Shown piece by piece: positions 1 through 16,886 of a stretch of DNA of 64,000 nucleotides. Source of the stretch: Bacteroides uniformis (GTDB lineage Bacteria > Bacillota_I > Bacilli_A > RFN20 > CAG-826). The stretch lies in NCBI GenBank assembly GCA_963641445.1, contig CAVIBR010000007.1:2525-66524 (forward strand), given 5' to 3'. Under the pieces are notes generated by a model. The model saw only the letters and a list, made by a program, of their open reading frames with translations. It was not told the origin of the DNA and made no database searches. Made by a program: the position numbers and the translations under genes. Within the stretch, counting starts at the first letter, position 1. Every line of letters begins with the position of its first letter.

Positions 1-133
1 ACTCGCCCCATTGGCGCCCGTTGTAGAAATCGTCGTCCTCCTCTATCGAGGCGACGAGGTCGGTCTTCGCCTGGTACTGCCTCCAGAATCTGTCGTGGAG
101 GAGCGCGTTCATGCTCTCGTTTCCCTTGGCCAT
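1..133 (-). CDS. phage portal protein, N-terminal fragment (truncated by window edge)
   Basis: ATG at 133-131 lies 3 nt after the upstream stop. Reads MAKGNESMNALLHDRFWRQYQAKTDLVASIEEDDDFYNGRQWGE. It sits directly after terL and has a YxGxQW-type motif like SPP1-type portals. Confidence 0.5.
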   Translation of the reverse strand, partial: MAKGNESMNALLHDRFWRQYQAKTDLVASIEEDDDFYNGRQWGE

Positions 134-136
134 CCG

Positions 137-373
137 TCAGCTCTCCTTTCTCCCTTGGTCGGGCCTGAATGGGTGGGAGGCCCTGAAGTCCCCGAAACCC
201 ATCATCCTCCTCTGCGCGTCGGCGGCTCTCTCCCTTGCCGGCGCGGTATCCGTTCTCTCTTCCTTCCTCATGCCCTCGATCTCCTTCCTGAGGGCGCTTA
301 TCTCGGAGGACTGCTCGGCCACCCTGGCCTCAAGCTCCCCCATCATCATGAGGATCCTCCTCTTGCTCACCAT
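137..373 (-). CDS. small Glu/Arg-rich coiled-coil-like phage protein (78 aa)
   Basis: Internal ATG of tracked ORF 137..598. Its ATG overlaps the terL stop (ATGGTGA), so it is translationally coupled. Confidence 0.5.
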   Translation of the reverse strand: MVSKRRILMMMGELEARVAEQSSEISALRKEIEGMRKEERTDTAPARERAADAQRRMMGFGDFRASHPFRPDQGRKES

Positions 374-2202
374 GTCATGTACCTCCTCACGACCTTCCTC
401 TCCTTCCTCAATGGGTCGAAGCCCATGCCCTTCCTGCCTTGCCTTGCGGCTTTCTCCACGGTCGCCGGGTACGCGCCCCTGACCAGGAAGAATCCGGCGT
501 ATGCCATGACGAGGTCGTCGTGCGCCCCGCCCTCGGCCATCGCCTTCTCCTTGCCGGACCTGCCGGATCTTATGTAGGAGAAGGACTCCATCTCGCATAT
601 CGTCGCGAAGTCATTGACGATCGAGCCCCCGGACTCCCTGAAGGCGACCACGAGGTCGTCTATCATCCTCTGGCGGTTCGACTGCTTGGTCTTGTACCCG
701 TAGCTCGCCATGAGCCTGCCGGATATGGCCTCGGTGTCCCTGTCCACGTAGACGTCCCTGACGCCCAGCCTCTTCATCGTGTTCACGAAGTAGGCGGTGG
801 TGTTGGTCTCGCCGGCCACCATGACCCTGCCCGAGGCGGCATGGAACTCCTCATAGAGGCAGTATGACTGGAAGGTGGCCTCATCCGCGTCGCAGCCCCT
901 CTTGTGGAACGTGGCGCACTGGGAGCAGTCCGAGTTGTCGATGAGCTGCGTCGCCCAGCAGTCCTCCCCGCCCATCGCGGGGTCGTTGACCATCACGTAC
1001 GGGTGCCCGGCCTCCGGCTCTCTGTAGATCGAGACCGCCCCGTTCGGGTCATCCGCCCACTCGATGCCGGAGAGCGACACCCTCCCGCCGTCTGATGAGA
1101 CGGATCTCCTGTATATGTAGTAACCCCTCCTCAATGGCTCCTTGGAGAGCAATTCGCCCTTCCTTCTCGAGACTATCGCCGAATTGAAGACGCTCGATCC
1201 GGATGAGACGAACATCTCCACCGGGTCGGAGGGGTATTCCTGCGCCATCCTGGCATCATCCTGCCCCGCTGTCTCCCATTTGGCGTGCCACCACTGCAGC
1301 TGGTCATCCGTGAGATGGTGCCTTTCTTTCATCTCCAATTCCTTCGGGGTGAGCCTGTGGCCGTCGTAGCGCATCGAGTAGGAGGGCTCCATGAACCACG
1401 GGATGAAGACCGACCTGAACATGCCCTTGCCGGACATCCCCATGTCGTACATCCTCTTCCACTCGTTGGCGCCGTTGGCCGTGGTCTCCCTGAAGATTAT
1501 CGAATCGATGTCGGTGTCCCCGACGGTGTTCTCGAGCGCCAGGCAGGTGCCCGCTATGTCGTCCCAGAAGGCGACCTCGGACTCGTGGACGTAGTCGAAG
1601 GTATTCGATCTCCCGGCGCCCTCGCCCTGGACGACCACCTTTATGGAGGAGGTGACGCCCCTCCCGTAGTCGAAGGTCAGCTCATAGGCGTTCTTGGCCT
1701 TCTTCCGGAGGTTCCTCCTGAGGTACTCCGGCGTGGTCTCATAGAGCAATTGGTATTTCTCGAAGAGCCCCGATGCGTGCCCGGCCACGTCGGCGACTAT
1801 GGCGCATCTCCTGCCGGGGATGAATGCGGTCAATGGGAAGAAGACCCCGGCCACGAAGGTCGAGCCGCCCATCTGGCGCGACTTGCCGTCGTTTATCCTT
1901 ATGGGCTTCCCCTCCCTCCTCATCAGGCACATCTCTTTGTAGAGCGCTATCTGCGAGGCGTTGAGCTCGAATGGGGCCACGCCCCCTCTCCCATCGCCCC
2001 TCTTGGTGGAGATCCTCTCATGGGCCTCCATGTAGCGCCACAATGGGTACCATCTCTGCTCCCCCGATTTGGGGTCTTTGAACCAGAATCCCATCTCGCG
2101 GTCGAACCCCGGGAGCTCCTCATCAGCCCTCGTATGCCTCATCAAGGGAGACCCATCGTCCTTGAGGATGGGATTGCCCATGGAATCCAAGACCGGTATC
2201 AT
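367..2202 (-). CDS. terL: terminase large subunit
   Basis: 611 aa. Has an ATPase P-loop-like GKSRQMGGST and a C-terminal nuclease-like GGAHDDLVMA. ATGA overlap with the upstream ORF, and a portal follows. Confidence 0.9.
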   Translation of the reverse strand: MIPVLDSMGNPILKDDGSPLMRHTRADEELPGFDREMGFWFKDPKSGEQRWYPLWRYMEAHERISTKRGDGRGGVAPFELNASQIALYKEMCLMRREGKPIRINDGKSRQMGGSTFVAGVFFPLTAFIPGRRCAIVADVAGHASGLFEKYQLLYETTPEYLRRNLRKKAKNAYELTFDYGRGVTSSIKVVVQGEGAGRSNTFDYVHESEVAFWDDIAGTCLALENTVGDTDIDSIIFRETTANGANEWKRMYDMGMSGKGMFRSVFIPWFMEPSYSMRYDGHRLTPKELEMKERHHLTDDQLQWWHAKWETAGQDDARMAQEYPSDPVEMFVSSGSSVFNSAIVSRRKGELLSKEPLRRGYYIYRRSVSSDGGRVSLSGIEWADDPNGAVSIYREPEAGHPYVMVNDPAMGGEDCWATQLIDNSDCSQCATFHKRGCDADEATFQSYCLYEEFHAASGRVMVAGETNTTAYFVNTMKRLGVRDVYVDRDTEAISGRLMASYGYKTKQSNRQRMIDDLVVAFRESGGSIVNDFATICEMESFSYIRSGRSGKEKAMAEGGAHDDLVMAYAGFFLVRGAYPATVEKAARQGRKGMGFDPLRKERKVVRRYMTW

Positions 2203-2543
2203 CGGCCATCCCCTTCCGGCGGCGCGAAGAAATCCAATGGCTCCCCGCCGGAGGTGACGTCGACCTGCTGCCTGGCCTCTCCCAATGCCGATGAGAGCTC
2301 CTTGAGGGACATCCTCTCCGGGTGCTCGAGCCTGTCACCGACCCACGCCTCTATGAGGGCGTCGCCCAAAGACGAGCCATCCTCCCCCTTCGAGGCCAAT
2401 GCGCCCGACAGGGCCTCCCTGAGGCTGAACGCCCCATCGCCCTTGTCCCCCCTCTTGGAGAGGTAGTATTCCTTCCAGTCCTTCCTCATGCTGGCTATAA
2501 TATAACGCCTCAAAAGCCCTTTTTCAAGCGGACTGCGTTGCAT
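2199..2543 (-). CDS. putative terminase small subunit (by position only)
   Basis: 114-aa ORF whose stop overlaps the terL ATG. No motif recognised. An alternative ATG at 2489 is preceded by TTGAAA-17-TATATT. Confidence 0.4.
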   Translation of the reverse strand: MQRSPLEKGLLRRYIIASMRKDWKEYYLSKRGDKGDGAFSLREALSGALASKGEDGSSLGDALIEAWVGDRLEHPERMSLKELSSALGEARQQVDVTSGGEPLDFFAPPEGDGR

Positions 2544-2710
2544 TGCGCAACATTCGCGTCATAATATGCCAGCCAATCCGGGGCGGGTGCCCTTTTCTTT
2601 TGGGAAGGTAAGGGAAGATGAGGGAATGCCTGAAATCATGGGGCGGATTTAGGGGAGGGGCATTGTTTGATGGAAGACCACCCCGCCTGTTCCCCGTGTG
2701 GGGGGTGGGG

Positions 2711-2768
2711 TCCCTCTCCCTCCTTCCTTCTCTTTCCTTCTCCTTTGCCTTCCTTCTTCCTTCCCTTG
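2711..2768. repeat. 58-nt polypyrimidine (CT) tract with a single purine
   Basis: tccctctccctccttccttctctttccttctcctttgccttccttcttccttccctt read directly. ORFs across it translate to low-complexity S/F/L/P strings. Confidence 0.8.
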
Positions 2769-2877
2769 GCGGCGTTTTGGGGCTTCATGCCCTCTTTTTT
2801 TGCTCAAAAACTGCACAATCAAAAGAAAAATAAAGGTTTCATCGTGTAAAGTTCGTTTTTTGGAAAATGAACGATAT

Positions 2878-2910
2878 AAAAAAGCATCTCAGATATTGGC
2901 ATCCGATGCC
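2878..2910 (-). terminator. possible intrinsic terminator (minus strand)
   Basis: On the minus strand reads GCATC-N16-GATGC followed by TTTTTT. The stem is short and the loop long. Confidence 0.3.
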
Positions 2911-2971
2911 TTCATGCGCACGCATCCGCGTTTGTAGACTAATTCAAGATAGTAAATAAATAATATTTTCA

Positions 2972-3017
2972 GTTAACTAGCCATTAATTAACTTACTTTG
3001 TTAACTAATTATTAACT
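2972..3017. repeat. four phased (G/A)TTAACT(A) repeats in an AT-rich spacer
   Basis: TTAACT at 2973, 2988, 3001 and 3012 (11-15 bp spacing), upstream of the packaging genes. Confidence 0.6.
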
Positions 3018-3324
3018 GAGTCTTACTTTTTGACTTAGTTTAGGTATTTTAGTTTTTCGTTTTCTGGCGGCTTCTCTTTTTCTCTCTGGGGTGTGTTCTC
3101 ATGCGCGACTAGCAAATTTAAAGAGAGTGAATAAGTATACCCAAGGAAGTATATATATTTATATCCGCATTCGCTCATATTGCCACATCATCAGTATTTA
3201 ATTTTATGGGCATTGCCATTTAAAAAACTTTTTTTCTTTCTCTTGCTTTGAAATTATCTTAAAAATATTTCTTCGATGTAATCTAGGTTTTTTATGTTTT
3301 TTGAAAGAATTTAATTATTTTCTA

Positions 3325-3354
3325 TTGCGTATGGGGTCAGTATGTGTTTATAAT
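3325..3354 (+). promoter_or_regulatory. sigma-A-like promoter of cassette A
   Basis: TTGCGT (3325-3330), 18-nt spacer, TATAAT (3349-3354), in an AT-rich context. Confidence 0.55.
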
Positions 3355-3393
3355 AATGTCGTTCCCAATGAGAGGAAGAAAGGAGGCGAGCCC

Positions 3394-3447
3394 GTGAAAA
3401 TCTTATTGAGAACGCCCCGCGTAAGTTGCAGGCCTGATTATGGATGA
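3394..3447 (+). CDS. leader mini-ORF A (17 codons, GTG start)
   Basis: AAAGGAGG lies 7 nt upstream of the GTG. Its TGA stop (3445-3447) overlaps the ATG at 3440 of the next ORF (ATGGATGA). Confidence 0.35.
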   Translation: MKILLRTPRVSCRPDYG

Positions 3448-3532
3448 AAAGAAAATCAAGCGCCTAATAATGCTACTCACAATAGCAAAGCTGGCGCTTG
3501 AGATCCTAATTCACATAATTAGTTTAGCCTAA
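3440..3532 (+). CDS. 30-aa amphipathic/hydrophobic peptide A (candidate type I toxin)
   Basis: MDEKKIKRLIMLLTIAKLALEILIHIISLA. No SD of its own, so it appears coupled to the leader. A paralog at 4582-4677 shares 11/21 residues, 7 of them through synonymous codon changes. Confidence 0.5.
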   Translation: MDEKKIKRLIMLLTIAKLALEILIHIISLA

Positions 3533-3549
3533 AAGGCGGGCGGCGTCAA
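3521..3549 (-). promoter_or_regulatory. antisense promoter A
   Basis: The minus strand reads TTGACG (3549-3544), 17 nt, TAAACT (3526-3521). It points back across peptide ORF A. The same boxes and spacing recur in cassette B. Confidence 0.5.
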
Positions 3550-3583
3550 GCGGGGCGGCGCCGTTTCGCTCAACGGGTAAAGG

Positions 3584-3787
3584 ATGCCAAGGAAGAGCAA
3601 GGAGCAGGAAAGGAAAGAGAGACAATACCAGAGGCAAAACGGATGGGCAAAGGAAAACACGAAGAAATACGCTGTTAGACTATCATACATCCAAGACGCC
3701 GAAATGATAGAGTTTCTCGAAAAGAAAGAAAGCAAAGCCGGCTACATTAAAGAATTGATAAAAAAAGACATGGAAGCCAGCAAATAA
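3584..3787 (+). CDS. ribbon-helix-helix-like small DNA-binding protein A (67 aa)
   Basis: Basic N-terminus, then a beta-strand/helix/helix pattern (KKYAVRLSY / DAEMIEFLEKK / KAGYIKELIKKDM). SD AAAGG precedes the ATG. Confidence 0.6.
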   Translation: MPRKSKEQERKERQYQRQNGWAKENTKKYAVRLSYIQDAEMIEFLEKKESKAGYIKELIKKDMEASK

Positions 3788-3939
3788 GAAAACTACCGCA
3801 GACGGTCGCACCCGCAAAGTAAAACCGCACACGGTAGCCAAACGGTGGCAAGCCTGAGCCAGCCCCGGCCAGATTGTACCACCCTAAAAGGAAAGGGGCA
3901 ACAAGAAGCCCCATAGGGGCATGAAAGGACAATCTGAAA

Positions 3940-4416
3940 ATGCTTAGAACGAACTCAAAACAAGTCAACAACAAGATCCGCGAGGCCTTCGCATCCGATG
4001 CGATGGGCTGCGCCGCCGAGTGGGCCGAATGGCTCCAGGAAAGCCCGGAGGATCTCGAGAAGGCCAAGGAGCAAGGGAGATGGGGGACGCTTGAGGCGCT
4101 CGCCATTCTCGCAGGCGTCGAAGGCTCCGAGAAGGGCATAGAGGCCCAAAAGCTCGCCGCCGATTTCATAAAAGAGACGGCAATGAAAGAGAAAGCCTAT
4201 GACGGCGCGCATTGGTCCCCTTCGCTCTTCGCCGAGTGGTGCCAGGGTTTGCCGGGCGCCCTCGACACTGCAAAATGGTACTGCCATAGCGCGATAGATT
4301 ACTGCAAAAGCCTTTTGGAGGAGACGGACGAGGAGGCCTCCAGATACTCCGAGACCGACGCCGAGGAATTGATCACAAATTTATTCTTCAGGGAGATAAA
4401 CAAATTAGCCAGATGA
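3940..4416 (+). CDS. hypothetical acidic protein (158 aa), cargo of cassette A
   Basis: ATG preceded by AAAGGA. Non-repetitive, protein-like composition. No family recognised. Confidence 0.6.
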   Translation: MLRTNSKQVNNKIREAFASDAMGCAAEWAEWLQESPEDLEKAKEQGRWGTLEALAILAGVEGSEKGIEAQKLAADFIKETAMKEKAYDGAHWSPSLFAEWCQGLPGALDTAKWYCHSAIDYCKSLLEETDEEASRYSETDAEELITNLFFREINKLAR

Positions 4417-4442
4417 AAAAACAAGGGGGATAAATCCCCCTT
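4414..4442 (-). terminator. intrinsic terminator oriented for the minus strand
   Basis: 8-bp stem AAGGGGGA/TCCCCCTT with a 4-nt loop. The U-tract (GTTTTTTCA) is present only on the minus strand. Confidence 0.6.
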
Positions 4443-4464
4443 CAAAAGAAAAACAAAATAATCG

Positions 4465-4493
4465 TTGCATAGTAAGCCACTACATTATACAAT
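4465..4493 (+). promoter_or_regulatory. sigma-A-like promoter of cassette B
   Basis: TTGCAT (4465-4470), 17-nt spacer, TACAAT (4488-4493). Confidence 0.55.
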
Positions 4494-4522
4494 GATGCTG
4501 CGAAAAGGAGGGAAAAACCCGA

Positions 4523-4585
4523 ATGATCGCAAGCCGAGGGGCTGACGCACCCAAGGCGCAAAGGGCCGGAGGGATACCCCCATAA
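4523..4585 (+). CDS. leader mini-ORF B (20 codons)
   Basis: AAAAGGAGGG upstream. The TAA stop (4583-4585) overlaps the aligned first codon of peptide B. Its amino acids are unrelated to leader A. Confidence 0.3.
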   Translation: MIASRGADAPKAQRAGGIPP

Positions 4586-4677
4586 GGAAGCCGAAAAAGA
4601 AAACTCTAGAGGCCTTAATAATCGTTCTGACGATAATTAAATTGCTTCTAGAGATCTTCGAAGCTCTTATAGTCTAA
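4582..4677 (+). CDS. peptide B, paralog of peptide A, without a canonical start (aligned start codon is ATA)
   Basis: IRKPKKKTLEALIIVLTIIKLLLEIFEALIV. The frame is open only from 4546 and has no ATG/GTG/TTG. Either a start-inactivated copy or coupled non-AUG reinitiation. Confidence 0.35.
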   Translation: MRKPKKKTLEALIIVLTIIKLLLEIFEALIV

Positions 4678-4699
4678 CCGATTAGGCCCGAGGCGTCAA
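4671..4699 (-). promoter_or_regulatory. antisense promoter B
   Basis: The minus strand reads TTGACG (4699-4694), 17 nt, TAGACT (4676-4671). The spacer sequence differs from A but the length and boxes are conserved. Confidence 0.5.
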
Positions 4700-4797
4700 G
4701 GGGGCGCGAAGCCCCGCCCATAAGGGCAAGGAGGAACCAAAAGACGAAAGACAAGGCGAAAGAGAGGGCGAGGGCCAAGCGCTGGAAGGATAGGAAC

Positions 4798-4935
4798 ATG
4801 ATAAAAATATCCGTGAATCTCAACATAGGGACCAACGCGAGGGATCAAGCCATAGCGGAATGGCTGGAGAGCCAGCCCAGCAAATCCGAGGCGCTCAAGG
4901 ACGCCGCCTACAAGGCACTATCCGAGGAGAAATAA
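4798..4935 (+). CDS. ribbon-helix-helix-like protein B (45 aa from first ATG; homologous frame open from 4678)
   Basis: MIKISVNLN...AIAEWLESQ...EALKDAAYKAL. The upstream in-frame KERARAKRWKDRN matches the N-terminus of RHH A but has no canonical start after SD AAGGAGG (4728-4734). Confidence 0.45.
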   Translation: MIKISVNLNIGTNARDQAIAEWLESQPSKSEALKDAAYKALSEEK

Positions 4936-5059
4936 GAAAAGCGCACCGGTTAAATACCACTCTAAGCGGTGCGCTCACAGGTTGCAAGGAGGCCAAAGCC
5001 CCGAAGCCCCCACATTGTAACCCTAAAAAGCCAGGAGGGGCAACAAAGGAGTTACAGAA

Positions 5060-5350
5060 ATGAGAGAATTAATCATCAAAGACCTTTCCGGGATATTCGG
5101 AAGCTTCAAAGCGGAGGACGTCGCAAAAGCGGTCATAGGCCGCATCGATGAGACCCATATAGCGGAGGGCGAGAGCCTCGAGGACGCCATCAGGGAGGCG
5201 CTAGACGCCGAGATGATATACGACGATGACAAATGGGCGGTGATAGCCAACTACAGCGACCCGGACAGCCCACTATCCTACGCCGAGGCGGAAGAGCTGT
5301 TCTTCGATGACCTCCTCCAATGCGTCGAGGCCCAGGAGATGGGCGACTAG
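5060..5350 (+). CDS. strongly acidic hypothetical protein (96 aa)
   Basis: SD AAAGGAG then ATG. 26 D/E against 7 K/R, counted by eye. Confidence 0.6.
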   Translation: MRELIIKDLSGIFGSFKAEDVAKAVIGRIDETHIAEGESLEDAIREALDAEMIYDDDKWAVIANYSDPDSPLSYAEAEELFFDDLLQCVEAQEMGD

Positions 5351-5359
5351 GGGGACGGC

Positions 5360-5647
5360 ATGATGAAGACCTTAGGGATGAATTACAAGGCCAAGACGGG
5401 GGCGGTCGTCGCCCTCACCCTGGAAGGGGAGGACATAACCGCATTGCACGAGGCGGCATCGGCGATAAGGGCGAAAAAAGTCAGGCTCTACACCGACCCG
5501 GTGGCCGACGAGACCTACCTATGGGGGCGCACGGAATCGGGCATCCGCTTCTCGAGCGAGAATTGCCCGCTCTCCATAACCTGGGGGGTGGCGGAAGGCG
5601 AGGAGAAACCCATCAGGATAGAGGGGCGCATCAGGGTCGGGGGTTAG
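5360..5647 (+). CDS. hypothetical protein (95 aa)
   Basis: Lies 9 nt after the previous stop with a GGGGGA SD-like sequence. Protein-like composition, unlike the Gly/Arg-rich overlapping frame 5320..5691. Confidence 0.55.
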   Translation: MMKTLGMNYKAKTGAVVALTLEGEDITALHEAASAIRAKKVRLYTDPVADETYLWGRTESGIRFSSENCPLSITWGVAEGEEKPIRIEGRIRVGG

Positions 5648-5695
5648 GCGATAGGCCACTCACGATTGAAGGGGCAATCAAGATAGCATAAAAAT

Positions 5696-5726
5696 AAGCC
5701 ATAATAAAATATTATGGCTTTTATTT
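5696..5726 (+). terminator. intrinsic terminator after cassette B
   Basis: 10-bp stem AAGCCATAAT/ATTATGGCTT, 5-nt loop, TTATTT tail. The upstream A-run may make it bidirectional. Confidence 0.7.
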
Positions 5727-5729
5727 CGC

Positions 5730-5758
5730 TTGCATTTTATCGTGCATTGCACTACATT
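5730..5758 (+). promoter_or_regulatory. promoter with operator palindrome of the toxin-antitoxin pair
   Basis: TTGCAT-17-TACATT. The perfect inverted repeat GTGCA-T-TGCAC (5742-5752) lies in the spacer. Confidence 0.5.
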
Positions 5759-5786
5759 AAAGGTGCCATAGCAAGGAGGCAAAAGA

Positions 5787-6008
5787 ATGAACGTGACAAT
5801 AAGGATGAGCGACGGGGAAAGGAAGATAGCCGACTCATACGCCAGATGCGAGGGGATGAGCCTCTCGGAGGCGATAAAGAGGGTTTTCTTCGAGGCCGTC
5901 GAGGAGGAATACGACCTAGCCGAGGCGAAAGCCGTCTCCGAGAGGATCGCCAGCGGGGAGGAGAAAACCTATTCGCTCGATGAGGCGGAGAAGATGCTGG
6001 GATTATGA
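5787..6008 (+). CDS. RHH-type antitoxin (RelB/CopG-like)
   Basis: 73 aa. SD AAGGAGG. The N-terminal beta-strand VTIRMSD plus helices fit an RHH fold. ATGA overlap with the toxin gene. Confidence 0.7.
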   Translation: MNVTIRMSDGERKIADSYARCEGMSLSEAIKRVFFEAVEEEYDLAEAKAVSERIASGEEKTYSLDEAEKMLGL

Positions 6009-6280
6009 CCGGGAAGGAATACCACCCGAGATATTCGGAAAGCGCAATCAGGCAATTGAGGAAGATGGACCGCCAGACGGCGCTTCTGATAACGAGATGG
6101 GTAAGGAAGAACCTTGACGGCATAGCGGACCCAAGGCGGATTGGGAAACCCTTGAAAGGAGGGCTCAACCTCTACTGGCGCTATCGCGTCGGGGACTATA
6201 GGATCCTCGCTGAGATAGTCGACGCCGAGTTCGTGATAGACGTCGTGAAAATCAGCCATAGGAGGGACGTATATGAATAG
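6005..6280 (+). CDS. relE: RelE/ParE-family type II toxin
   Basis: 91 aa. ...LKGGLNLYWRYRVGDYRILAEIVDAEFVIDVVKISHRRDVY is the typical RelE/StbE C-terminal pattern. Confidence 0.8.
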   Translation: MTGKEYHPRYSESAIRQLRKMDRQTALLITRWVRKNLDGIADPRRIGKPLKGGLNLYWRYRVGDYRILAEIVDAEFVIDVVKISHRRDVYE

Positions 6281-6306: not shown

Positions 6307-6708
6307 TTATACCATGAGCCTCCGCCTGACGTCGGCAACGAGAGAGCGGACGCGCGAGGGCCTCTCGCCTATCTTGGCCGCTATGATCGCGTAATCGAGG
6401 TCGGAGAGGGCGGCGAGGGATGCGGCGCGGTTCTGCCACGACCCTTTGGGGTACCATGAGTCCAAGACCCTCTGAAGGGCTTTTTTTGTGACTTTTAAGT
6501 CACTCTCAAGCCCCTCTTTCCTGGTCTCCAGCCTCTCGGCCGCGATGACCGCCTGGAGGGCCTTAAGCTCGCCCGCGCTCCCAGGCTTGGCGGACGCGTG
6601 GCGGTCGATGATGGCTTTCTGCGCCCTGAGCCCCGCTCTCACCGCCTCCAGCTCGAGCTCCATCGAGCGGATGGAATCGACCACGCGGACGGCGCTTGGC
6701 TCACTCAT
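6307..6708 (-). CDS. hypothetical protein with C-terminal HTH-like segment; possible late-gene regulator (position only)
   Basis: 133 aa. The C-terminus LSDLDYAIIAAKIGERPSRVRSLVADVRRRL resembles a sigma region-4-type HTH. It is the last gene before the packaging region. Confidence 0.5.
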   Translation of the reverse strand: MSEPSAVRVVDSIRSMELELEAVRAGLRAQKAIIDRHASAKPGSAGELKALQAVIAAERLETRKEGLESDLKVTKKALQRVLDSWYPKGSWQNRAASLAALSDLDYAIIAAKIGERPSRVRSLVADVRRRLMV

Positions 6709-7027
6709 AGTCGCCCGCCCTCCTCCTCGCGCCGTTTCTCAGGAAGCGCACGTCATAGGCCACGGCGGAGGTTATCGGCATTTTGCCCTCCTCGCGCATC
6801 GGCGTGCCCCTGAGCATCCCCGACACGGCGACGGGTTTGCCCTTGAGGCTCGCGAAGTCGCCAAGCCTGCTCAAAGGGTTCAGGAAGATGGCGAAGCGGA
6901 ACGGCGCGGCGTCCCCGTTGGGCACCTCGAGGATGAAGCACTGCTGCGGGGCCTTGGAGTTCGGGAATGGCGTGTAGAGGTCGGTGAGCGCGACGCCCAC
7001 GAGGTGGAACCCGTTGAGCGCGCCCAT
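6701..7027 (-). CDS. hypothetical phage protein (108 aa)
   Basis: ATG at 7027 shares one nt with the upstream stop (TGATG). The N-terminal part of tracked ORF 6701..7159 was trimmed. Confidence 0.5.
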   Translation of the reverse strand: MGALNGFHLVGVALTDLYTPFPNSKAPQQCFILEVPNGDAAPFRFAIFLNPLSRLGDFASLKGKPVAVSGMLRGTPMREEGKMPITSAVAYDVRFLRNGARRRAGDYE

Positions 7028-7206
7028 CAGCCCCCCCAGAGCTCGCTGAGCATCACGAAGCCCAATGCCGCCACCGGGATGCCGGGGATGATGAGGATCA
7101 GCCCCCAGCCCCTCCAGAGTACCGGCCCGACTATCAGCAGGAACGCGGCGGCCAGGCACACCGCGGCGGTCGCAAGCTGGAACAGCAGCACTTTTATGAA
7201 ATCCAT
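7027..7206 (-). CDS. small membrane protein, two predicted TM helices (59 aa)
   Basis: MDFIKVLLFQLATAAVCLAAAFLLIVGP...LILIIPGIPVAALGFVMLSELWGG. AAGGAG lies 8 nt upstream of the ATG at 7206. Confidence 0.55.
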   Translation of the reverse strand: MDFIKVLLFQLATAAVCLAAAFLLIVGPVLWRGWGLILIIPGIPVAALGFVMLSELWGG

Positions 7207-7227
7207 GTCTTTCGCTCCTTTGCCGTG

Positions 7228-7257
7228 ATTATGCCACGGGGCGATGCGGCAAGTCAA
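7228..7257 (-). promoter_or_regulatory. sigma-A-like promoter (minus strand)
   Basis: TTGACT (7257-7252), 18 nt, CATAAT (7233-7228), just upstream of the small membrane protein gene. Confidence 0.45.
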
Positions 7258-7363
7258 ACGGCCGTTGGCACGCACGAGCCACGCAAAGGGCTCAAATTTC
7301 AACGTTCGCAACTCGTTTGATAAATTACTCATTCTCATTCCGTTTTTTGAAATCCGTGGCATT

Positions 7364-7600
7364 CTAGCGCTTCCTCGTGCGCCTCCCGGCGATGAAGGAC
7401 ACCCCCGACCTTGTGCATCCGCCGCATCTGATAAGCCTGTAGACAGTGTCGCGGCTCACCCCGAAAGCCCTTGCCGCCTCATCCGCCGTGCGCCACCTGA
7501 TTCGCTCCTCCGCGCCGTCCTGGAGCGTGCGCACCGAGGTGACCGACATGTGGATGGTGGCCCTCTTGACCCCCATGGCCTCCCAATCGAGCATGCCCAT
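7364..7600 (-). CDS. HTH DNA-binding protein (excisionase/MerR-like HTH)
   Basis: RTADEAARAFGVSRDTVYRLIRCG is a helix-turn-helix. ATG at 7600 overlaps the RusA stop. Confidence 0.55.
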   Translation of the reverse strand: MGMLDWEAMGVKRATIHMSVTSVRTLQDGAEERIRWRTADEAARAFGVSRDTVYRLIRCGGCTRSGVSFIAGRRTRKR

Positions 7601-8043
7601 CAATCATCCCCCTCGCCGAAGAGCATGAGCTCGACCCACACGCTGGGCTCCTCGTCGTAGATCTTAGTGACCGTGAGGCTCCAGACGAGCGCGTCATCCC
7701 TGTAGGCGATGCCGTTCAGCGCGTCCATGACCGATTTCGCGGCGTTGTCTATGTCGGGCTTCCTCGATGGCACCAGCCCCCCTGAGAGCATCATGGCGCG
7801 CTTTTTCTTGCTGATGCCTTTGGGCGGGGCCATCCTGATGGTTATCCTCATCGCCACCGGGCCGTCCATCGGCTCCGCGTCCGGGTGCTCCCCCTCATAG
7901 CACAGCCTCACCCAGTTCTCGTACTCGACCTGCTTCGCCGGCGTGTATACCCTCGCATGCCCCGCGAAGGCCGATGCCTTTGGGCGCATCTTGCCCCTTG
8001 CCTCGCCCGGCACCTTGAACATCCTTCTCTTGATTATCGTCAT
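7600..8043 (-). CDS. rusA: RusA-family Holliday junction resolvase
   Basis: SRKPDIDNAAKSVMDALNGIAYRDDALV is the RusA signature. ATG at 8043 (the tracked start at 8046 is TTG). Confidence 0.85.
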   Translation of the reverse strand: MTIIKRRMFKVPGEARGKMRPKASAFAGHARVYTPAKQVEYENWVRLCYEGEHPDAEPMDGPVAMRITIRMAPPKGISKKKRAMMLSGGLVPSRKPDIDNAAKSVMDALNGIAYRDDALVWSLTVTKIYDEEPSVWVELMLFGEGDD

Positions 8044-8240
8044 CAATCATCCTCCCTGTCGTCTATCCTGATCACCACCGTGCCCCGCCCGCCGCTTCTC
8101 CTCAGCCACGTCGGGGAGCAGTACCAGCGGATGAGCCTCGCGTCCATCCCCGTCCTCTCGCGGAGCTCCTCTGCCGTGCCAAGGTCCACGAACTCATCGC
8201 CCCTGTACACGGCGTAGACCGCCCGGCATTTGCCTGCCAT
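8043..8240 (-). CDS. hypothetical phage protein (65 aa)
   Basis: Start and stop overlap the neighbouring genes in the same operon. Confidence 0.5.
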   Translation of the reverse strand: MAGKCRAVYAVYRGDEFVDLGTAEELRERTGMDARLIRWYCSPTWLRRSGGRGTVVIRIDDREDD

Positions 8241-8584
8241 CAGGCCTCGTTCCCCCTTGGCCCATCGTCATCGTCATCGACCATGCAGGATAGGGCATAG
8301 GCCACGCCCTCGTCCATCTCGGCCATCTCGCTCTCCGTCATCGCCCTCGAGTCGAATGAGCCCAGCGAGGCGAGCTTGTCTATGAGCCTCGTCTCCGCCA
8401 GGCCGAGTACGGCGAGCTGCGCGTCCGCCGCCCTTTTGCGCGCCATGTATCTCCCTGGGTCCCTCTTCCTGTCCTTGAGCATGCCGTCGATGGCCGCGCT
8501 GAGGACCGCGAACACGTAGGCGATCTCCGCCTTGGTCATGCTGATCCTGTATTCCTTGGCCTTCCTGGCCTCCCTGTCGCTCAT
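8240..8584 (-). CDS. hypothetical phage protein (114 aa)
   Basis: Internal ATG of tracked ORF 8240..8824. ATGA overlap with 8581..8787. Acidic C-terminus. Confidence 0.5.
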   Translation of the reverse strand: MSDREARKAKEYRISMTKAEIAYVFAVLSAAIDGMLKDRKRDPGRYMARKRAADAQLAVLGLAETRLIDKLASLGSFDSRAMTESEMAEMDEGVAYALSCMVDDDDDGPRGNEA

Positions 8585-8787
8585 CTTTCTTTGCCCTCCC
8601 TTATCTCGAACTCCATGAAGTTCCCGTTCCTGTGGTAGAACCTCATGCGTATCGTGCCGTCCTGGCAGACGCTCCTCTCTATCCTCGACCGTCTGTCGCA
8701 GATGAGCATATAGAGGGCGTCCTTGAGCTCGCCCTCGCTCACGCTCATCCCATCGCAGCCGCTGCTGCGCATCGTTATCTCTCTCAT
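8581..8787 (-). CDS. hypothetical phage protein (68 aa)
   Basis: ATGA-coupled at both ends. Confidence 0.5.
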   Translation of the reverse strand: MREITMRSSGCDGMSVSEGELKDALYMLICDRRSRIERSVCQDGTIRMRFYHRNGNFMEFEIREGKER

Positions 8788-8909
8788 CTCTTCTCCTTCC
8801 TGGCCTCCCTGAGCAAGCGCTCATAGTGCCTCTTCCTGTCCTTGAACGCCCTGTAATTGGGGGCGCCCCTCATGGCCTCATAGGCCCTCTTCACCTCATC
8901 GGCCAGCAT
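8784..8909 (-). CDS. hypothetical small basic protein (41 aa)
   Basis: MLADEVKRAYEAMRGAPNYRAFKDRKRHYERLLREARKEKR, translated by hand. The stop overlaps the next ATG. Below the ORF-track size cut-off. Confidence 0.4.
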   Translation of the reverse strand: MLADEVKRAYEAMRGAPNYRAFKDRKRHYERLLREARKEKR

Positions 8910-8927
8910 TTTCTCTCCTCAGGCCCC

Positions 8928-9185
8928 TCATTTCCCAAGCACCGATTTCATGAAGGCGTACTCGGCCTCGGTGAGGTAGGCGGTCTTGCCTCCCCTCATC
9001 GTGCGCATGACCGTCTTGGCGTACACGCTCTCGGTCAGGTTCAGCGCCATCTTCTCGGCGAGCATGTCGAATGCCTTGGCCTTTCTCGCGAGCCTGACCA
9101 GCTCCTCCGTCTTCGGGTCTTTGGCCGGCTCCTCGGCTTTCGCCTCTTCGATCGCTTTGCCTTCTTTGCTCTTCTTCGTTACCAT
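8928..9185 (-). CDS. hypothetical phage protein (85 aa)
   Basis: Clean ATG. Lys/Glu-rich N-terminus. Same strand and codon style as the operon. Confidence 0.5.
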   Translation of the reverse strand: MVTKKSKEGKAIEEAKAEEPAKDPKTEELVRLARKAKAFDMLAEKMALNLTESVYAKTVMRTMRGGKTAYLTEAEYAFMKSVLGK

Positions 9186-9242
9186 TTTTCATTCTCTCCT
9201 TCTGGCGGCCTCATAGGCCTCTTTTTACTTTCACCGACTCCA

Positions 9243-9986
9243 TCAGAACAGCGTCCCCTGCTCGCACTGCGTGCCGTCGGCGTTCCTGGTTATCTGGCTG
9301 GTCCCCTCGACCCTTGCCTGCGCTATCCTGAAGTAGCGCTCATTCAGCTCGAAGCCCACGTAATGCCTCCCAAGCGATTTCGCCGCGGCGCACGTCGTCC
9401 CGCTCCCCATGAAGGGATCCAATACGACCCCCCCCGGACGGCTTGAGTTCTCGATCAGGTTCGAGATTATCCCGAACGGCTTGATGGTCGGGTGGCCGTA
9501 TTTTCTCTTATCCGCGGAGTTTATGTCCGTCAGGTAGACCGTGCGCGCCCTCTCGTATCTCGTGTCGAGCCTCACGCCCTTCCAGAAGTAGAGGCAGTAC
9601 TCCTTGTCCTTCAGGTAATGGCTCCCCGTGAATGGGGGAGGGTTCCTCTTGCCCCACACGATGATCTCGAAGTTGCATCCCATCCCCTTGAGGAACCAGT
9701 CGAGGTAGGATGGGATCTGCTCCTTGTTGCACCAGACGTAGATGTTCGGCTTCCTCATAACCCTCGTGAGCTCGGGGAGGATCCTCATGGCGTCCACGCC
9801 CCTGTCGAGGCCCTCCTCCCTTATCTCCCTGTATGAGTTCGCCATGTTCCGGCGGTTTTTGAAGAGCCCCGTGTCGCATCCGCCGGTGCCGAACTCGTAT
9901 GGCGGGTCGGTGACTATGAGGTCCACGGAGCCGTCCGGGATACCCTTGATCAGCTCGTAGGCGTCGCCCAACATGAGCTCATCCAT
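9243..9986 (-). CDS. DNA methyltransferase, N6-adenine/N4-cytosine family (beta class), orphan
   Basis: TDPPY catalytic motif near the N-terminus and the SAM-binding motif DPFMGSGTT near the C-terminus. No restriction gene is adjacent. Confidence 0.85.
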   Translation of the reverse strand: MDELMLGDAYELIKGIPDGSVDLIVTDPPYEFGTGGCDTGLFKNRRNMANSYREIREEGLDRGVDAMRILPELTRVMRKPNIYVWCNKEQIPSYLDWFLKGMGCNFEIIVWGKRNPPPFTGSHYLKDKEYCLYFWKGVRLDTRYERARTVYLTDINSADKRKYGHPTIKPFGIISNLIENSSRPGGVVLDPFMGSGTTCAAAKSLGRHYVGFELNERYFRIAQARVEGTSQITRNADGTQCEQGTLF

Positions 9987-10479
9987 TGCCGTTCCCCCTC
10001 GCGAGGAGCTCAAGCGCAAGCTCGTGGGCCCTCTCCTTCGAGAGCTTGCTTGCGACCGTCGCATGCCCCTTGCCGTCCCATCGAATGAGGTAGTAGGCTC
10101 CTATCATCGGGTCGTCGACGTCGTCCCCCCACACCCCGTCCCTCATCATGCCATAGTCCCTCGGGTCGAGGTGCCTTTCCAGCTTGAGGCCGTCTATGGC
10201 GACCGCCTGGAAGCATCCCGCGTCGGTGGCTACCAATGAGAGCGAGTAGGACGGCTCCGGGCCCTGGTAGTCGCTCTCGTCCTCGTAGATGTTCCAGATC
10301 TCGTCCCTCCTGAGCGCCTCCACGTTCGCCTCCGCCCTCTCCCTCATCCTCGCCTTGAGCTCATCCTGCCTGGCGAACCTCTCGCGGTAGGATGCCCTGA
10401 GCGCGGCTAGGTCTTTCCTGAATGACTCCTCTATCTCGTCGCTCTCGGCTTTCATGACCGAATACTCCTTGTCTCTCAT
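9979..10479 (-). CDS. hypothetical phage protein (166 aa)
   Basis: ATG with GGGAAGAGG upstream. No family recognised. Confidence 0.55.
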   Translation of the reverse strand: MRDKEYSVMKAESDEIEESFRKDLAALRASYRERFARQDELKARMRERAEANVEALRRDEIWNIYEDESDYQGPEPSYSLSLVATDAGCFQAVAIDGLKLERHLDPRDYGMMRDGVWGDDVDDPMIGAYYLIRWDGKGHATVASKLSKERAHELALELLARGNGNG

Positions 10480-10490
10480 CCTCTTCCCTC

Positions 10491-10694
10491 CTATGAGTTG
10501 TCCTTGAGGCTCTTCCTGGCCGATTCCATGAGCCTCCTGTCGCCCGTCAGCGACGCCACGCGGATGTCCCTGTTGGCTTTCTCCCTCTTCCTTCTGCGCT
10601 CGGCCTCTATGAGCTCGCAGTACTCGTCGTACGCGTCATAGTCCCCTCTCCCCGCCCTCTTCCTGAGGGCCCTCATTCTCTCTTGGTCTATCAT
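10491..10694 (-). CDS. hypothetical phage protein (67 aa)
   Basis: ATGA overlap with the upstream gene. Arg/Glu-rich. Confidence 0.5.
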   Translation of the reverse strand: MIDQERMRALRKRAGRGDYDAYDEYCELIEAERRRKREKANRDIRVASLTGDRRLMESARKSLKDNS

Positions 10695-11347
10695 AATGAA
10701 TCGATCTCCTTGTTCAGTCTTTTGTCCTCCCCGACGTCTCTCTCGACCTCCTCAAGCGCCTTTGCGGGGTCCATGCGGGCGCCGAGGATCTTGCTCCTCC
10801 TGCATAATTCGAGCACCTTGGATGCCTTCCTCCACTCCTGCCTCGCCTCGAGCCACACGACCATCCTCTCGGTGAAGCCGTGGATCTCCTCGATGGTTAT
10901 GGCGGAGCCCCTCCACACGGCGTTCAGGTAGTGGTCCACCCTCTCTAGGCCGTAGCCGTCGGGGCTGTCATCCTCCACGCCTAGCCTATCCAGGCGCCTG
11001 AACAGGTTTTTGGAGGAGAGATACCCCTTATCCTCGATGGGCCTGCGGTCGAACCTGCCCTCCCTTATCTCAGGGGCTATCCTTTTCTCGATGAAGGCGC
11101 ATTTGTGGACGACCGATATCCTCACCCCGTCCAGCCTCTCTTTGAGAAGCGATATGTCGAAGGAGGACCTTCTCCCGGCCTCCTCCACCACCAGCCCGAT
11201 GGCGGCCTCCCTCGTCCTGCGGTCCCTGTCATAGCCGATGAACCCGGCCAAGAGCCCCTGCAAGGCCGCCACATCAATATCCATGTCATCTGGAATATCT
11301 GTGCTATCTACAATATTCGTAGTATTTAAGTTATTAATGTCGCGCAT
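10691..11347 (-). CDS. hypothetical protein downstream of the replisome organizer (possible replication accessory)
   Basis: 218 aa. No Walker motif. Function suggested by position only. Confidence 0.55.
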   Translation of the reverse strand: MRDINNLNTTNIVDSTDIPDDMDIDVAALQGLLAGFIGYDRDRRTREAAIGLVVEEAGRRSSFDISLLKERLDGVRISVVHKCAFIEKRIAPEIREGRFDRRPIEDKGYLSSKNLFRRLDRLGVEDDSPDGYGLERVDHYLNAVWRGSAITIEEIHGFTERMVVWLEARQEWRKASKVLELCRRSKILGARMDPAKALEEVERDVGEDKRLNKEIDSL

Positions 11348-11352
11348 AATGT

Positions 11353-11898
11353 TTACTTACATCCCTTAGGTAACATAGAAGATGGTGGTGGTGATGGCAT
11401 CTGCTCTTTCTTTAATTCTTTCTCTTTATCTAACTCTTTATCTATCTCTATATCTTTCTCTATCTCTATCTCCGTTGAAATTGGTTGAAATTGGGTTGAA
11501 GTTTGGTTGAAATTTTTCAACCTTTTCTTTTCTTTCAATAGGATATTTCGATAAGTCTCGGAACCGATCATCGAGTCGCATTCGATGAGATGGACGTCAT
11601 CCCCTTTCTCCTCCCAGAGCCCACTAGCCTTGAGAAATTGGATCGTCACCCTGACGTTGTCGACCTCCTCGTCGAGCTTGAGGGCGAGCTCCTCCTCGAT
11701 CGTCTTCTCAACGCCTTCGTAGATGATCATGGATCCGTGGTTCATAGCCATGAGGAGCATCTTGAGGTAGATGACCGTGTAGGTGTCCCCTCCCGCTATC
11801 CTCCTGAGCTTCTTGATCCTGGCGTTCTTGAACCAGTTTTTAGGGAGTTTGAGGTAGAAATACTTCCGCTCCTTCTGATATTCATTCCCGTGCGCCAT
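11353..11898 (-). CDS. phage replisome organizer (N-terminal domain family)
   Basis: YFYLKLPKNWFKNARIKKLRRIAGGDTYTVIYLKMLLMA matches the replisome-organizer N-terminal pattern. The C-terminus is low-complexity EIEIEKDIEIDKELDKEKE. Confidence 0.75.
   Translation of the reverse strand: MAHGNEYQKERKYFYLKLPKNWFKNARIKKLRRIAGGDTYTVIYLKMLLMAMNHGSMIIYEGVEKTIEEELALKLDEEVDNVRVTIQFLKASGLWEEKGDDVHLIECDSMIGSETYRNILLKEKKRLKNFNQTSTQFQPISTEIEIEKDIEIDKELDKEKELKKEQMPSPPPSSMLPKGCK
11441..11522. repeat. iteron array (candidate phage origin) inside the organizer gene
   Basis: GTTGAA at 11474, 11484, 11495 and 11506 (10-11 bp phasing) plus an inverted TTCAAC at 11516. Preceded by TCTATC/TCTCTATC repeats in a locally AT-rich stretch. 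Confidence 0.6.
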
Positions 11899-15201: not shown

Positions 15202-15216
15202 GTTCTTTTCTCTCCT

Positions 15217-15651: not shown

Positions 15652-15664
15652 GCTCTTTCTCCTT

Positions 15665-16635: not shown

Positions 16636-16657
16636 ATTGAATCTCCTATTTTATTTT

Positions 16658-16870: not shown

Positions 16871-16886
16871 CTCTTCTCCTTTTAAA

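Follow-up and report, generated by a model that had tools for sequence, protein, structure and literature searches.

Conserved blocks of a tandemly duplicated prophage cassette as predicted promoters and terminators of opposing antisense RNAs

Introduction

A plus-strand island in a prophage of contig CAVIBR010000007.1 (GenBank assembly GCA_963641445.1) carries two tandem cassettes, in each of which a hydrophobic micro-protein gene is followed by a gene for a small ribbon-helix-helix (RHH)-like protein and by one or two further genes, here termed cargo. Conserved blocks and hairpins lie between these genes, and the question raised by the locus is what these blocks do. In an earlier reading made from the sequence alone (the sequence-only reading), they were taken to be plus-strand non-coding elements of a modular carrier. 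Our analysis of the whole 64,000-nucleotide (nt) stretch (the window) suggests instead that the blocks are the promoters and terminators of two predicted antisense RNAs that oppose each plus-strand operon, and we assign this interpretation a probability of roughly 0.6. It builds on signals, strand, conservation and covariation that are present in the DNA, and from these we infer transcription, toxicity of the peptide, repressor activity of the small protein and the direction of regulation.

Results and discussion

Two diverged cassettes share the order of their parts

Cassette A spans positions 3325–4442 of the window and cassette B positions 4465–5720, and the parts follow one another in the same order. 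Unit A consists of a promoter (3325–3354), the micro-protein or peptide gene (3440–3532), the small-protein gene (3584–3787), a hairpin (3794–3837), a conserved block (3873–3904) and one cargo gene (3940–4416). The corresponding parts of unit B are a promoter (4465–4493), a peptide frame ending at 4677, a small-protein gene ending at 4935, a hairpin (4940–4975), a block (5014–5046) and two cargo genes (5060–5350 and 5360–5647). The terminator scan places a bidirectional terminator at 5696–5720, which closes the two-cassette transcription unit. The sequence-only reading had listed the parts in the right order, but had missed an open reading frame (ORF) in the leader of each cassette that overlaps the peptide gene.

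DNA similarity between the cassettes was assessed by local alignment against dinucleotide shuffles (n = 500). Three segments score significantly: that of the peptide gene (z 4.6), the sequence that follows the peptide (z 4.5; score reached by 0/500 shuffles) and the gap that separates small protein from cargo (z 6.3; likewise 0/500). The promoter region and the small-protein gene show no significant DNA similarity by the same measure. At the protein level, the two peptides share 11/21 identities (E 2e-4). The small proteins are not similar by BLASTP, and their profiles are homologous (hhalign probability 94.6%, E 7e-8). The proposal of two tandem units with a shared order of parts is thus borne out by the three DNA segments and the homology of the small proteins.

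Close homologs of small protein A are rare. Their contigs, together with those of cargo A homologs, yielded a set of related loci (numbered with the prefix L) that comprises a sister phage (L004), diverged relatives (L005, L006, L007, L013, L015 and L103) and a decayed prophage remnant beside thyA (L001–L003). Cassette A is intact in this remnant in three samples, which fits an addictive or otherwise useful module. The unit is therefore found outside this genome (L001–L007, L013–L015 and L103), and other phage groups have analogous units. When the region was compared at the nucleotide level with GenBank phages and PLSDB plasmids, nothing was returned, and a search of IMG/VR with the large terminase found no relatives. 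Parts have also been shuffled between slots, as the B slot of L006 holds an A-type small protein and a promoter like that of L001 A. In L107 (positions 2312–3189; uncultured Clostridiales), two tandem pairs of hydrophobic peptide and small protein indicate that tandem duplication of the core recurs in another lineage.

The gap between small protein and cargo carries a predicted minus-strand promoter and terminator

When both strands were scanned for consensus sigma-70-like hexamers and for terminators, four minus-strand promoters were found, one on each conserved block. Two of them lie in the gap between small protein and cargo, where the block GGGGCAACAA..CCCTAAAA..ATTGTA is a promoter read backwards: GGGGCAA...ATTGTA becomes TTGCCC-17/18-TACAAT on the minus strand. 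In cassette A the promoter is TTGCCC-17-TACAAT with a TG upstream of the -10 (3901–3873), and in cassette B it is TTGCCC-18-TACAAT (5043–5014). ATTGTA lies at 3873 and 5014 and GGGGCAACAA at 3895 and 5037, so that the distance between them, given before as an identical 23 nt, is 22 nt in A but 23 nt in B.

Each of these promoters would produce a short RNA, which we term small RNA 2. The predicted RNA of cassette A (3788–3866, minus strand, ~79 nt) has a 5′ tail, the hairpin at 3794–3837 and a U-run at 3788–3793; that of cassette B (4929–5007, minus strand, ~75 nt) has the hairpin at 4940–4975 followed by TTTTCTTATTT, with a T-run ending at 4929–4936. The U-run corresponds to the GAAAA of the plus strand that abuts the stop codon of the small-protein gene. 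What had been described as a stop codon, GAAAA and a long hairpin is consequently an intrinsic terminator of the minus strand, and both kinds of conserved block, formerly regarded as plus-strand non-coding elements, match minus-strand sigma-70 promoters.

Conservation among relatives is concentrated on these signals. Both types of minus-strand promoter are present at the same positions in 11–13 copies (window, L001, L004–L007, L013, L015 and L103), which represent about nine loci besides the window, and their spacers differ. Some copies are nearer to consensus (TTGACA-18-TACAAT in L007B, TTGACC-17-TATAAT in L001A), and the A cassettes of L005 and L006 have a different gap sequence, yet carry TTGCCC-17-TAGACT. 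In an alignment of 11 copies, the columns without variation are those of the terminal T-run and of T, A, A and T in the -10.

The terminator stems contain compensatory pairs, with A-U, G-C and U-G at one position. Paired as minus-strand RNA, the stems are intact in 88/90 and 91/99 cells, against 72/90 and 61/99 as plus-strand RNA, an asymmetry that owes part of its size to the use of structures predicted for the minus strand and to the counting of G.U pairs with the U-run. Single substitutions in L005B and L013B, at different positions, produce a G.U pair on the minus strand and a C.A mismatch on the plus strand. Covariance models match at full length only on the minus strand (88–102 bits), whereas the plus strand is matched by the hairpin alone (24–37 bits). 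Model R2 scores 101 bits on cassette A, on the minus strand only, and model R1 scores 99 bits on the minus strand of cassette B versus 32 bits for the hairpin alone on the plus strand. Models of both small-RNA classes found no copies beyond the lineage, and the A and B classes cross-match each other only with E 0.2–0.4. A covariance search of this kind had been proposed for the two gap elements. The stems do covary among relatives, but they do so on the minus strand and within the lineage. Nor does the hairpin of A differ from that of B by compensatory change, as had been suggested: the two are different terminators, and covariation and G.U pairs occur only between orthologous copies.

A further comparison concerns the 18-nt loop of the B hairpin (4948–4965), which is the exact reverse complement of positions 1124–1141 of L007 (GTTAAATACCACTCTAAG versus CTTAGAGTGGTATTTAAC) between identical stems. 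The stem and not the loop is conserved, which fits a terminator whose loop sequence is irrelevant. Such a loop inversion corresponds to a flip by recombination between the arms of the hairpin.

Three candidate observations on small RNA 2 were set aside. Duplex energies for targets in trans were uninformative in GC-rich, purine-rich sequence; a recurring trans site near the ribosome-binding site of small protein B (shared GCAAGGAGG and GAAGCCCC) was too inconsistent to claim; and L101, the sole IMG/VR match to the promoter pattern, was treated as a chance hit, as it is matched by neither covariance model.

A second predicted minus-strand promoter faces the micro-protein gene

The remaining two minus-strand promoters lie at the 3′ end of the peptide genes and read TTGACG-17-TAAACT in cassette A (3549–3521) and TTGACG-17-TAGACT in cassette B (4699–4671). 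The conserved block GCGTCAAG (3543–3550 in A) coincides with the -35 of this promoter, and since the scan placed a minus-strand promoter on it, we regard GCGTCAAG as a -35 box. The -10 overlaps the last codons or the stop codon of the peptide gene. In 13 copies, whose spacers are unrelated, the corresponding position holds a TTGAC-16..18-TAnnnT arrangement.

For cassette B, the terminator scan found an intrinsic terminator on the minus strand only (4415–4442; hairpin 4423–4442 followed by GTTTTTTCA). This is probably the 3′ end of the predicted antisense RNA 1 B, which would begin near 4664 and measure ~245 nt. The same hairpin with its preceding A-run is present in L005, L006 and L007.

The opposing plus-strand operon has overlapping, probably coupled leader and micro-protein frames

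The plus-strand promoter of cassette A, TTGCGT-18-TATAAT (-35 at 3325–3330, -10 at 3349–3354), was read from the sequence; the consensus scan overlooked it because its -35 matches just 3/6 bases. Its position and hexamers are the same in L004, L005, L001 and L103, and its spacer contains a GTATG...GTATG repeat. Promoter B, TTGCAT-17-TACAAT (4465–4493, plus strand), has an imperfect dyad in its spacer. Dyads within such promoter spacers, including CATAGTAAC.TTACTATG in L013A and TATATG.CATATA in L103, are candidate operators.

Downstream of promoter A, a leader ORF of 17 amino acids (3394–3447, plus strand) starts with GTG 7 nt after GGAGG, and its TGA stop codon overlaps the start of micro-protein A (ATGGATGA). 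An equivalent overlapping leader is retained, with indels, in L013A, L005A, L015 and L103. In cassette B, the leader ORF of 20 amino acids (4523–4585, plus strand) starts with ATG 10 nt after AAGGAGGG, and its TAA stop codon overlaps ATA 4582 (cATAAgg). This leader is still open in L005B and L006B despite a 3-nt indel, and in L007B and L013B it is fused in frame to the peptide as one ORF of 56 amino acids. The overlap of leader stop and micro-protein start suggests that the two frames would be translationally coupled, as in mok/hok.

Micro-protein A (MDEKKIKRLIMLLTIAKLALEILIHIISLA; 3440–3532, plus strand) has 30 amino acids, with a basic N-terminus and a hydrophobic C-terminal helix. Micro-protein B (IRKPKKKTLEALIIVLTIIKLLLEIFEALIV; 4582–4677, plus strand) has 31 codons counted from ATA and lacks a canonical start codon. 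The 19-residue Kyte-Doolittle maximum of the micro-proteins is 2.3–2.5 (2.3 for A), which is transmembrane grade. At 30–31 amino acids, the peptides lie under the 60-amino-acid limit of type I toxins and are conserved as coding sequence in 11 copies, where an L-x-L-E-I motif is kept through synonymous codon changes. The ‘type I-like’ label given earlier is thus plausible in view of size and hydropathy, but the peptides match no toxin family and the RNAs no antitoxin family of Rfam.

A hydrophobic peptide in this position need not be a toxin. The plasmids pCF10 and pAD1 encode a small hydrophobic peptide between two convergent promoters whose transcripts overlap, and the peptides of the cassettes might by analogy be exported signalling or inhibitor peptides, as in the enterococcal prgQ/prgX or iad/traA switches. 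The L001 peptide MLKKYVRKAVIMLLITALALALVG does resemble a signal peptide. Yet no receptor or regulator of the RRNPP or PrgX type is encoded nearby; most of the peptides, unlike pheromones derived from signal peptides, carry Lys and Glu in the hydrophobic helix together with LxLEI; and in many unrelated phages the peptide is accompanied by a small DNA-binding-like protein. A signalling role is for these reasons extremely improbable.

Cassette B raises the further problem that no ATG, GTG or TTG stands where its homologs start: peptide B begins with ATA 4582 and small protein B with ACG 4744. This would be expected if cassette B were a decaying copy whose peptide and small protein are no longer made, leaving only cassette A functional, and the 56-amino-acid leader-peptide ORF of L007B and L013B is indeed split in the window. 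We consider such decay quite unlikely. The leader ORF remains open and ends exactly at CCATAAGG despite the 3-nt indel that separates the window from L005B and L006B. The ACG codon lies 9 nt after a perfect AAGGAGG, and the window, L005B, L006B and L007B all retain ACG AAR GAC. Furthermore, ATA replaces ATG in both L013A and L013B, and both antisense promoters and the terminator of cassette B are intact.

Near-cognate ATA or ACG codons exactly at the position of the homologs' ATG, behind a good Shine-Dalgarno sequence or overlapping an upstream stop codon, recur at several loci and in both types of gene. They are located at 4582–4584 and 4744–4746 of the window, at 1667–1669 of L013 and in the ATA of GCCATAGCAAGG near position 262 of L013, at 1361 and 1517 of L005, and at 758 and 917 of L006. 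In addition, peptide B and small protein B share one frame with a single TAA between them (window 4675–4746), and the intervening frame is open in four loci despite indels (window; L005 1454–1519; L006 851–919; L007 851–866). In L007, an ATG 10 nt past the peptide stop codon opens an 82-amino-acid form. Reinitiation or stop-codon read-through joining peptide B to small protein B is possible. Two other mechanisms were rejected: -1 frameshifting at C CCC CCA UAA, which would join leader B to peptide B, since L005B and L006B read CCG CCA TAA, and A-to-I editing of ACG or AUA, as neither has the UACG loop context.

The small protein belongs to a family without an existing model

Small protein A (3584–3787, plus strand) has 67 amino acids and is characterized by an NKAGY[IL]K motif, a basic N-terminal helix and an invariant Trp21. 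Small protein B (4744–4935, plus strand) has 63 codons counted from ACG 4744, which aligns exactly with the ATG of the B-type homologs P0032 and P0033; the only ATG in the gene (4798) would drop the conserved basic N-terminal part. The ACG AAR GAC start is retained in L006 even where the gene is A-type.

An AlphaFold2 monomer model of small protein A (predicted local distance difference test score, pLDDT, 87) consists of a helix at residues 6–25, an extended segment at 26–38 and helices at 39–46 and 51–66, a pattern compatible with the RHH fold. The RHH label of the sequence-only reading finds its sole agreement in this predicted secondary structure. Pfam, PHROGs, NCBIfam and PADLOC assigned no family to the small proteins or the peptides, a profile search of the Protein Data Bank (PDB) returned no RHH protein, Foldseek against the PDB gave no match, and hhalign of the family against the neighbouring DUF6290 RHH antitoxin family returned a probability of 0.1%.

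The best PDB profile match is the lambda N peptide bound to boxB (1QFQ_B), an ungapped alignment of 17 residues that is not significant (E 0.36). It covers residues 9–25 of small protein A (window 3584–3660) and places a Trp on Trp18 of lambda N. Trp21 and Asn25 are invariant in the close family, and Tyr stands in place of Trp in wider homologs. A short GC hairpin, GGGGC-GCGAA-GCCCC (4701–4715, plus strand), also lies just upstream of the ribosome-binding site of small protein B, and B-type copies have GCGAA, GGCGA or GAGA in its loop. We considered, on these grounds, whether the small protein could be a lambda N-like RNA-binding regulator of a boxB-like hairpin that controls read-through or translation, rather than a DNA-binding repressor. 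The match itself, the two invariant residues, the long N-terminal helix of the model and the 5-bp GC stems with G...A loops directly before the B-type genes would agree with such a function. Against it speak the non-significant score, the change from Trp to Tyr in wider homologs, the confinement of boxB-like hairpins to B-type copies (no A-type copy has a comparable GC hairpin before its small-protein gene) and the RHH-like strand-helix-helix pattern of the C-terminal half. Moreover, the terminator scan found no plus-strand intrinsic terminators within the cassettes, and thus none to be read through. A lambda N-like regulator in place of a repressor is very improbable, and the resemblance of the basic N-terminal helix is only a lead.

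Cargo genes vary in one slot and are constant in the other

Cargo A (3940–4416, plus strand) encodes 158 amino acids with the motifs MLRTNSK, WCQGLP and LEETxEE, which are invariant in its family. Cargo B1 (5060–5350, plus strand) encodes an acidic protein of 96 amino acids, and cargo B2 (5360–5647, plus strand) one of 95. None of the three could be assigned to a family in searches of Pfam, PHROGs, NCBIfam and PADLOC, and none matched a Rep protein. The model of cargo A is all-alpha (pLDDT 92), and Foldseek found nothing significant for it in the PDB or BFVD. The cargo of A and B had been called unrelated; this agrees with the lack of a shared family and with the different lengths, two points on which the statement rests, as the proteins were not aligned directly.

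The ribosome-binding sites of the first cargo genes are predicted to be sequestered on the plus strand. In cassette A, a helix of 3870–3880 with 3927–3936 covers the site of cargo A, and its 5′ arm overlaps ATTGTA; in cassette B, a helix of 5016–5024 with 5047–5056 covers the AGGAG of cargo B1. Minimum-energy folds place a closing helix over the cargo ribosome-binding site in 10/10 copies from three sequence classes. The G.U pairs of this helix are valid only on the plus strand, and L006B, L013B and L015B rely on them.

If the conserved blocks and hairpins were plus-strand cis elements of a mobile, integron-like carrier cassette that exchanges payload genes, the cargo slots should be the variable part. 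The two units are alike in architecture and have different downstream genes, parts recombine between slots, and slot B holds B1 and B2, B2 only, B1 with a 65-amino-acid protein and a B2-like protein, proteins of 85, 95 and 83 amino acids, or proteins of 95 and 99 amino acids in different relatives. Slot A, by contrast, holds the same family of 153–158 amino acids in every relative. The payload, whose variability a synteny survey had been proposed to check, is thus not hypervariable: one slot is constant, the other moderately variable, and the core also exists without cargo. Conversely, homologs of cargo A occur without the cassette in L008–L012, within arrays of small acidic genes and in the island of another phage. 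Neither a recombinase nor an attC-like site, capture site or flanking repeats were found in the units, the sole integrase being that of the prophage (17704–18831). The blocks themselves have the spacing expected of minus-strand promoters and terminators, and across copies only those hexamers are kept. A carrier of this type is accordingly very unlikely. Of the modular unit proposed earlier, the diverged tandem duplication and the shuffling of parts between slots remain, and the interpretation of the conserved blocks as plus-strand elements of a cargo carrier does not.

Among the cargo A homologs outside cassettes, that of L008 (5001–5366) is part of a long array in which large AT-rich spacers separate small acidic genes, and that of L010 (3127–3567) stands behind a promoter flanked by two copies of ATCACCGAGCGGTGATAAC.

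The core layout recurs in a large phage protein family

A profile of the small protein matched 5,156 clusters at 50% identity with E ≤1e-3, and 722 with E ≤1e-10, in a collection of 1.8 billion representatives, as well as 96 phage loci in IMG/VR. Members are also found in prophages of Coriobacteriia, Lachnospiraceae, Christensenella and other Clostridia, and some of 118–213 amino acids (P0039, P0040, P0042 and others) contain two or three tandem small-protein domains. The family has no Pfam or NCBIfam model, and its few members in GenBank phages are labelled ‘hypothetical protein’.

A minus-strand terminator follows directly after the small-protein stop codon in 39/76 IMG/VR ORFs. Minus-strand promoter-like sites 25–170 nt past the stop codon were found in 14/49 non-redundant IMG/VR loci, compared with 8 on the plus strand and 5.7 in shuffles, and their -35 elements cluster at stop+103..108. 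Around the start of the gene, such sites are present on the minus strand in 24/49 loci, compared with 14 on the plus strand and 8.4 in shuffles.

The full core layout, without cargo, is displayed by a group of independent phages (L062, L079, L094, L052, L078, L080 and L085). A promoter and a hydrophobic peptide of 25–27 amino acids are followed there by a minus-strand TTGACA-17-TATAAT that overlaps the start of the small-protein gene; this gene is followed by a T6-tailed hairpin and, at a distance of ~70 nt, by a minus-strand -10 of the form TGnTAtAAT. The peptides of this group resemble BsrG-like toxins by eye.

A model for antisense control and its relation to known systems

The minus-strand signals on the conserved blocks suggest that each cassette joins a type-I-toxin-like peptide and its antisense RNA to a repressor-like protein and its countertranscript. 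In this model, transcription from a sigma-70 promoter would begin with a leader whose short ORF is served by a strong ribosome-binding site. This leader ORF would be coupled to the basic and hydrophobic micro-protein of ~30 residues, followed by the RHH-like protein of 63–67 residues, and the cargo would be reached by read-through. Antisense RNA 1 would start at the 3′ end of the peptide gene and extend backwards across both the micro-protein and leader ORFs and the 5′ untranslated region, and in cassette B it would stop at the minus-only terminator 4442–4423. Small RNA 2 would fill the spacer between small protein and cargo with a tail of ~30 nt and the intrinsic terminator abutting the stop codon.

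Regulation may then operate at several levels. The small protein would repress its own promoter through the dyads in the promoter spacer. Antisense RNA 1 would keep a membrane-active peptide untranslated or its mRNA unstable, like a type I antitoxin, and small RNA 2 would be a countertranscript that affects the 3′ portion of the mRNA and translation of the cargo, in the manner of pMV158 RNAII or P22 sar. The weak AUA and ACG starts, together with coupling, would give extra damping. The likely role of such a system is a tightly gated, toxin-like peptide that stabilizes the prophage or excludes competitors, with accessory genes placed on the same switch.

Several findings weigh against this model. 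Besides the inflated pairing asymmetry, Rfam contains no relevant match at gathering or permissive thresholds (the BsrG model reaches 14 bits, with a cut-off of 55 bits), and no terminator of antisense RNA 1 was found in cassette A. The peptides have no Pfam match to a known toxin family, and Lys and Glu lie inside their hydrophobic stretch. The RHH assignment has the lack of database matches described above, and the absence of canonical starts means that copy B is possibly weakly expressed or decaying. Small RNA 2 ends ~5 nt before the arm that pairs with the Shine-Dalgarno sequence of the cargo gene and ~55–60 nt before the cargo ribosome-binding site. Within the wider family, an upstream hydrophobic peptide of 25–60 amino acids was found in 25/76 IMG/VR ORFs and the downstream minus-strand promoter in the 14/49 loci mentioned, so that both features mark only a subset.

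The closest precedent for small RNA 2 is the copG-rnaII-repB region of plasmid pMV158, where the countertranscript lies wholly in the intergenic spacer. It has a 5′ tail and, adjacent to the stop codon of the repressor gene, a terminator, and its complement in the mRNA directly precedes the translation signals of the target (PMC4485353). As judged by sequence signals, the cassettes likewise have a small repressor-like gene predicted to share its transcript with the following gene, a predicted countertranscript encoded in the spacer, and a hairpin with poly(U) at the stop codon. They differ in the length of the RNA (~75–80 nt versus 48 nt), in a cargo that is not a Rep initiator, in residing in a prophage rather than a plasmid, in a small protein without detectable relation to CopG, and in the addition of a micro-protein and a second antisense promoter.

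In phage P22, the sar RNA of the arc-sar-ant region base-pairs with ant mRNA and blocks its translation (PMC2629481, PMC13397905). The cassettes share with the immI region of P22 a phage moron location and, if the predictions hold, the succession of an RHH repressor gene, an antisense RNA and a regulated gene. The sar RNA covers the ant ribosome-binding site, whereas the predicted RNAs of the cassettes begin (~3866 and ~5007) upstream of the ribosome-binding sites (~3927 and ~5047), which sit in an intramolecular helix. The cassettes also lack a Mnt-like second repressor, and no Ant or KilAC domain was detected in their proteins.

For the peptide, the relevant precedents are the type I systems of Gram-positive prophages, with antitoxin RNAs that overlap at the 3′ end, and the coupling of mok and hok (PMC4147584). 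In common with bsrG/SR4, txpA/RatA, yonT and sprG/SprF, the cassettes have a hydrophobic prophage peptide and a convergent, 3′-overlapping predicted RNA that ends in a terminator, but a protein gene lies between the peptide and the 3′ RNA, and a second antisense promoter points into the peptide ORF. As in hok/mok/sok of plasmid R1, translation of the peptide apparently depends on an overlapping upstream frame with a good ribosome-binding site. In the cassettes, however, the predicted antisense RNA would start where the peptide gene ends and not at the mok start, there is no sequence similarity, and the hosts are Gram-positive. Neither the peptides nor the RNAs belong to the described families that were compared (Fst, TxpA, BsrG, Hok, Ldr and others; Rfam antitoxin RNAs).

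A broader version of the model would unite peptide, NKAGY[IL]K small protein and both antisense RNAs in an undescribed, widespread phage module of three or four components, and would hold that the Trp-containing basic N-terminal helix also contacts RNA, that near-cognate starts and termination-reinitiation are evolved control, and that the module is a general gate for toxic or anti-host genes in phages of gut Firmicutes and Coriobacteriia. We regard this extension as doubtful.

Genomic setting of the cassettes

Positions 1 to ~19,000 of the window have 55–62% GC and carry phage genes on the minus strand, whereas ~19,000–64,000 have 32–41% GC and Firmicute markers (class B RNase P RNA, a tRNA cluster and a thiamine pyrophosphate (TPP) riboswitch). 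The plus-strand island with the cassettes (3325–6280) is inserted between the terminase genes, large (367–2202, minus strand) and small-terminase-like (2199–2543, minus strand), and the early genes (6307–16894, minus strand). The integrase gene lies at 17704–18831 on the plus strand, and the prophage is integrated upstream of thyA (20318–21148).

Phage and host chromosome differ in GC by ~25 points, an unusually large gap. Relatives of the small protein are common in the high-GC Coriobacteriia, and the thyA site in low-GC contigs of three other samples holds a remnant of the same high-GC element (L001 4660–6450). The host features outside the prophage are located at 28753–29211 (a cluster of five tRNAs: Leu, Lys, Gln, Tyr and Val), 36738–36845 (TPP riboswitch) and 62299–62615 (class B RNase P RNA).

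Directly after both cassettes, the plus strand encodes a DUF6290 antitoxin and a ParE/RelE-type toxin (5787–6008 and 6005–6280). This pair is retained in L004 and L007, and the antitoxin alone in L010 and L013. Between the small-terminase-like gene and cassette A, an AT-rich stretch (2940–3320, ~25–30% GC) contains four or five repeats of TTAACT / TTAATTAACT. Conservation of this possible packaging or regulatory site extends to L004 and, in part, to L001.

Implications

Conserved ‘non-coding’ blocks of phage genomes should be read on both strands before they are called RNA structures. The signals described here point to a regulatory module that would be widespread but unannotated in gut phages, a variant of known antisense-controlled modules built around a large undescribed family. 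If the predicted RNAs exist, they would define a compact and widespread phage module that joins two classic antisense designs on a protein family of more than 5,000 clusters (50% identity) without a Pfam or NCBIfam model. Such a module would offer a testable case of AUA and ACG initiation coupled to leader ORFs and a natural, tightly closed expression switch, and it would account for many of the unannotated short genes at the junction of early and late genes in gut prophages.

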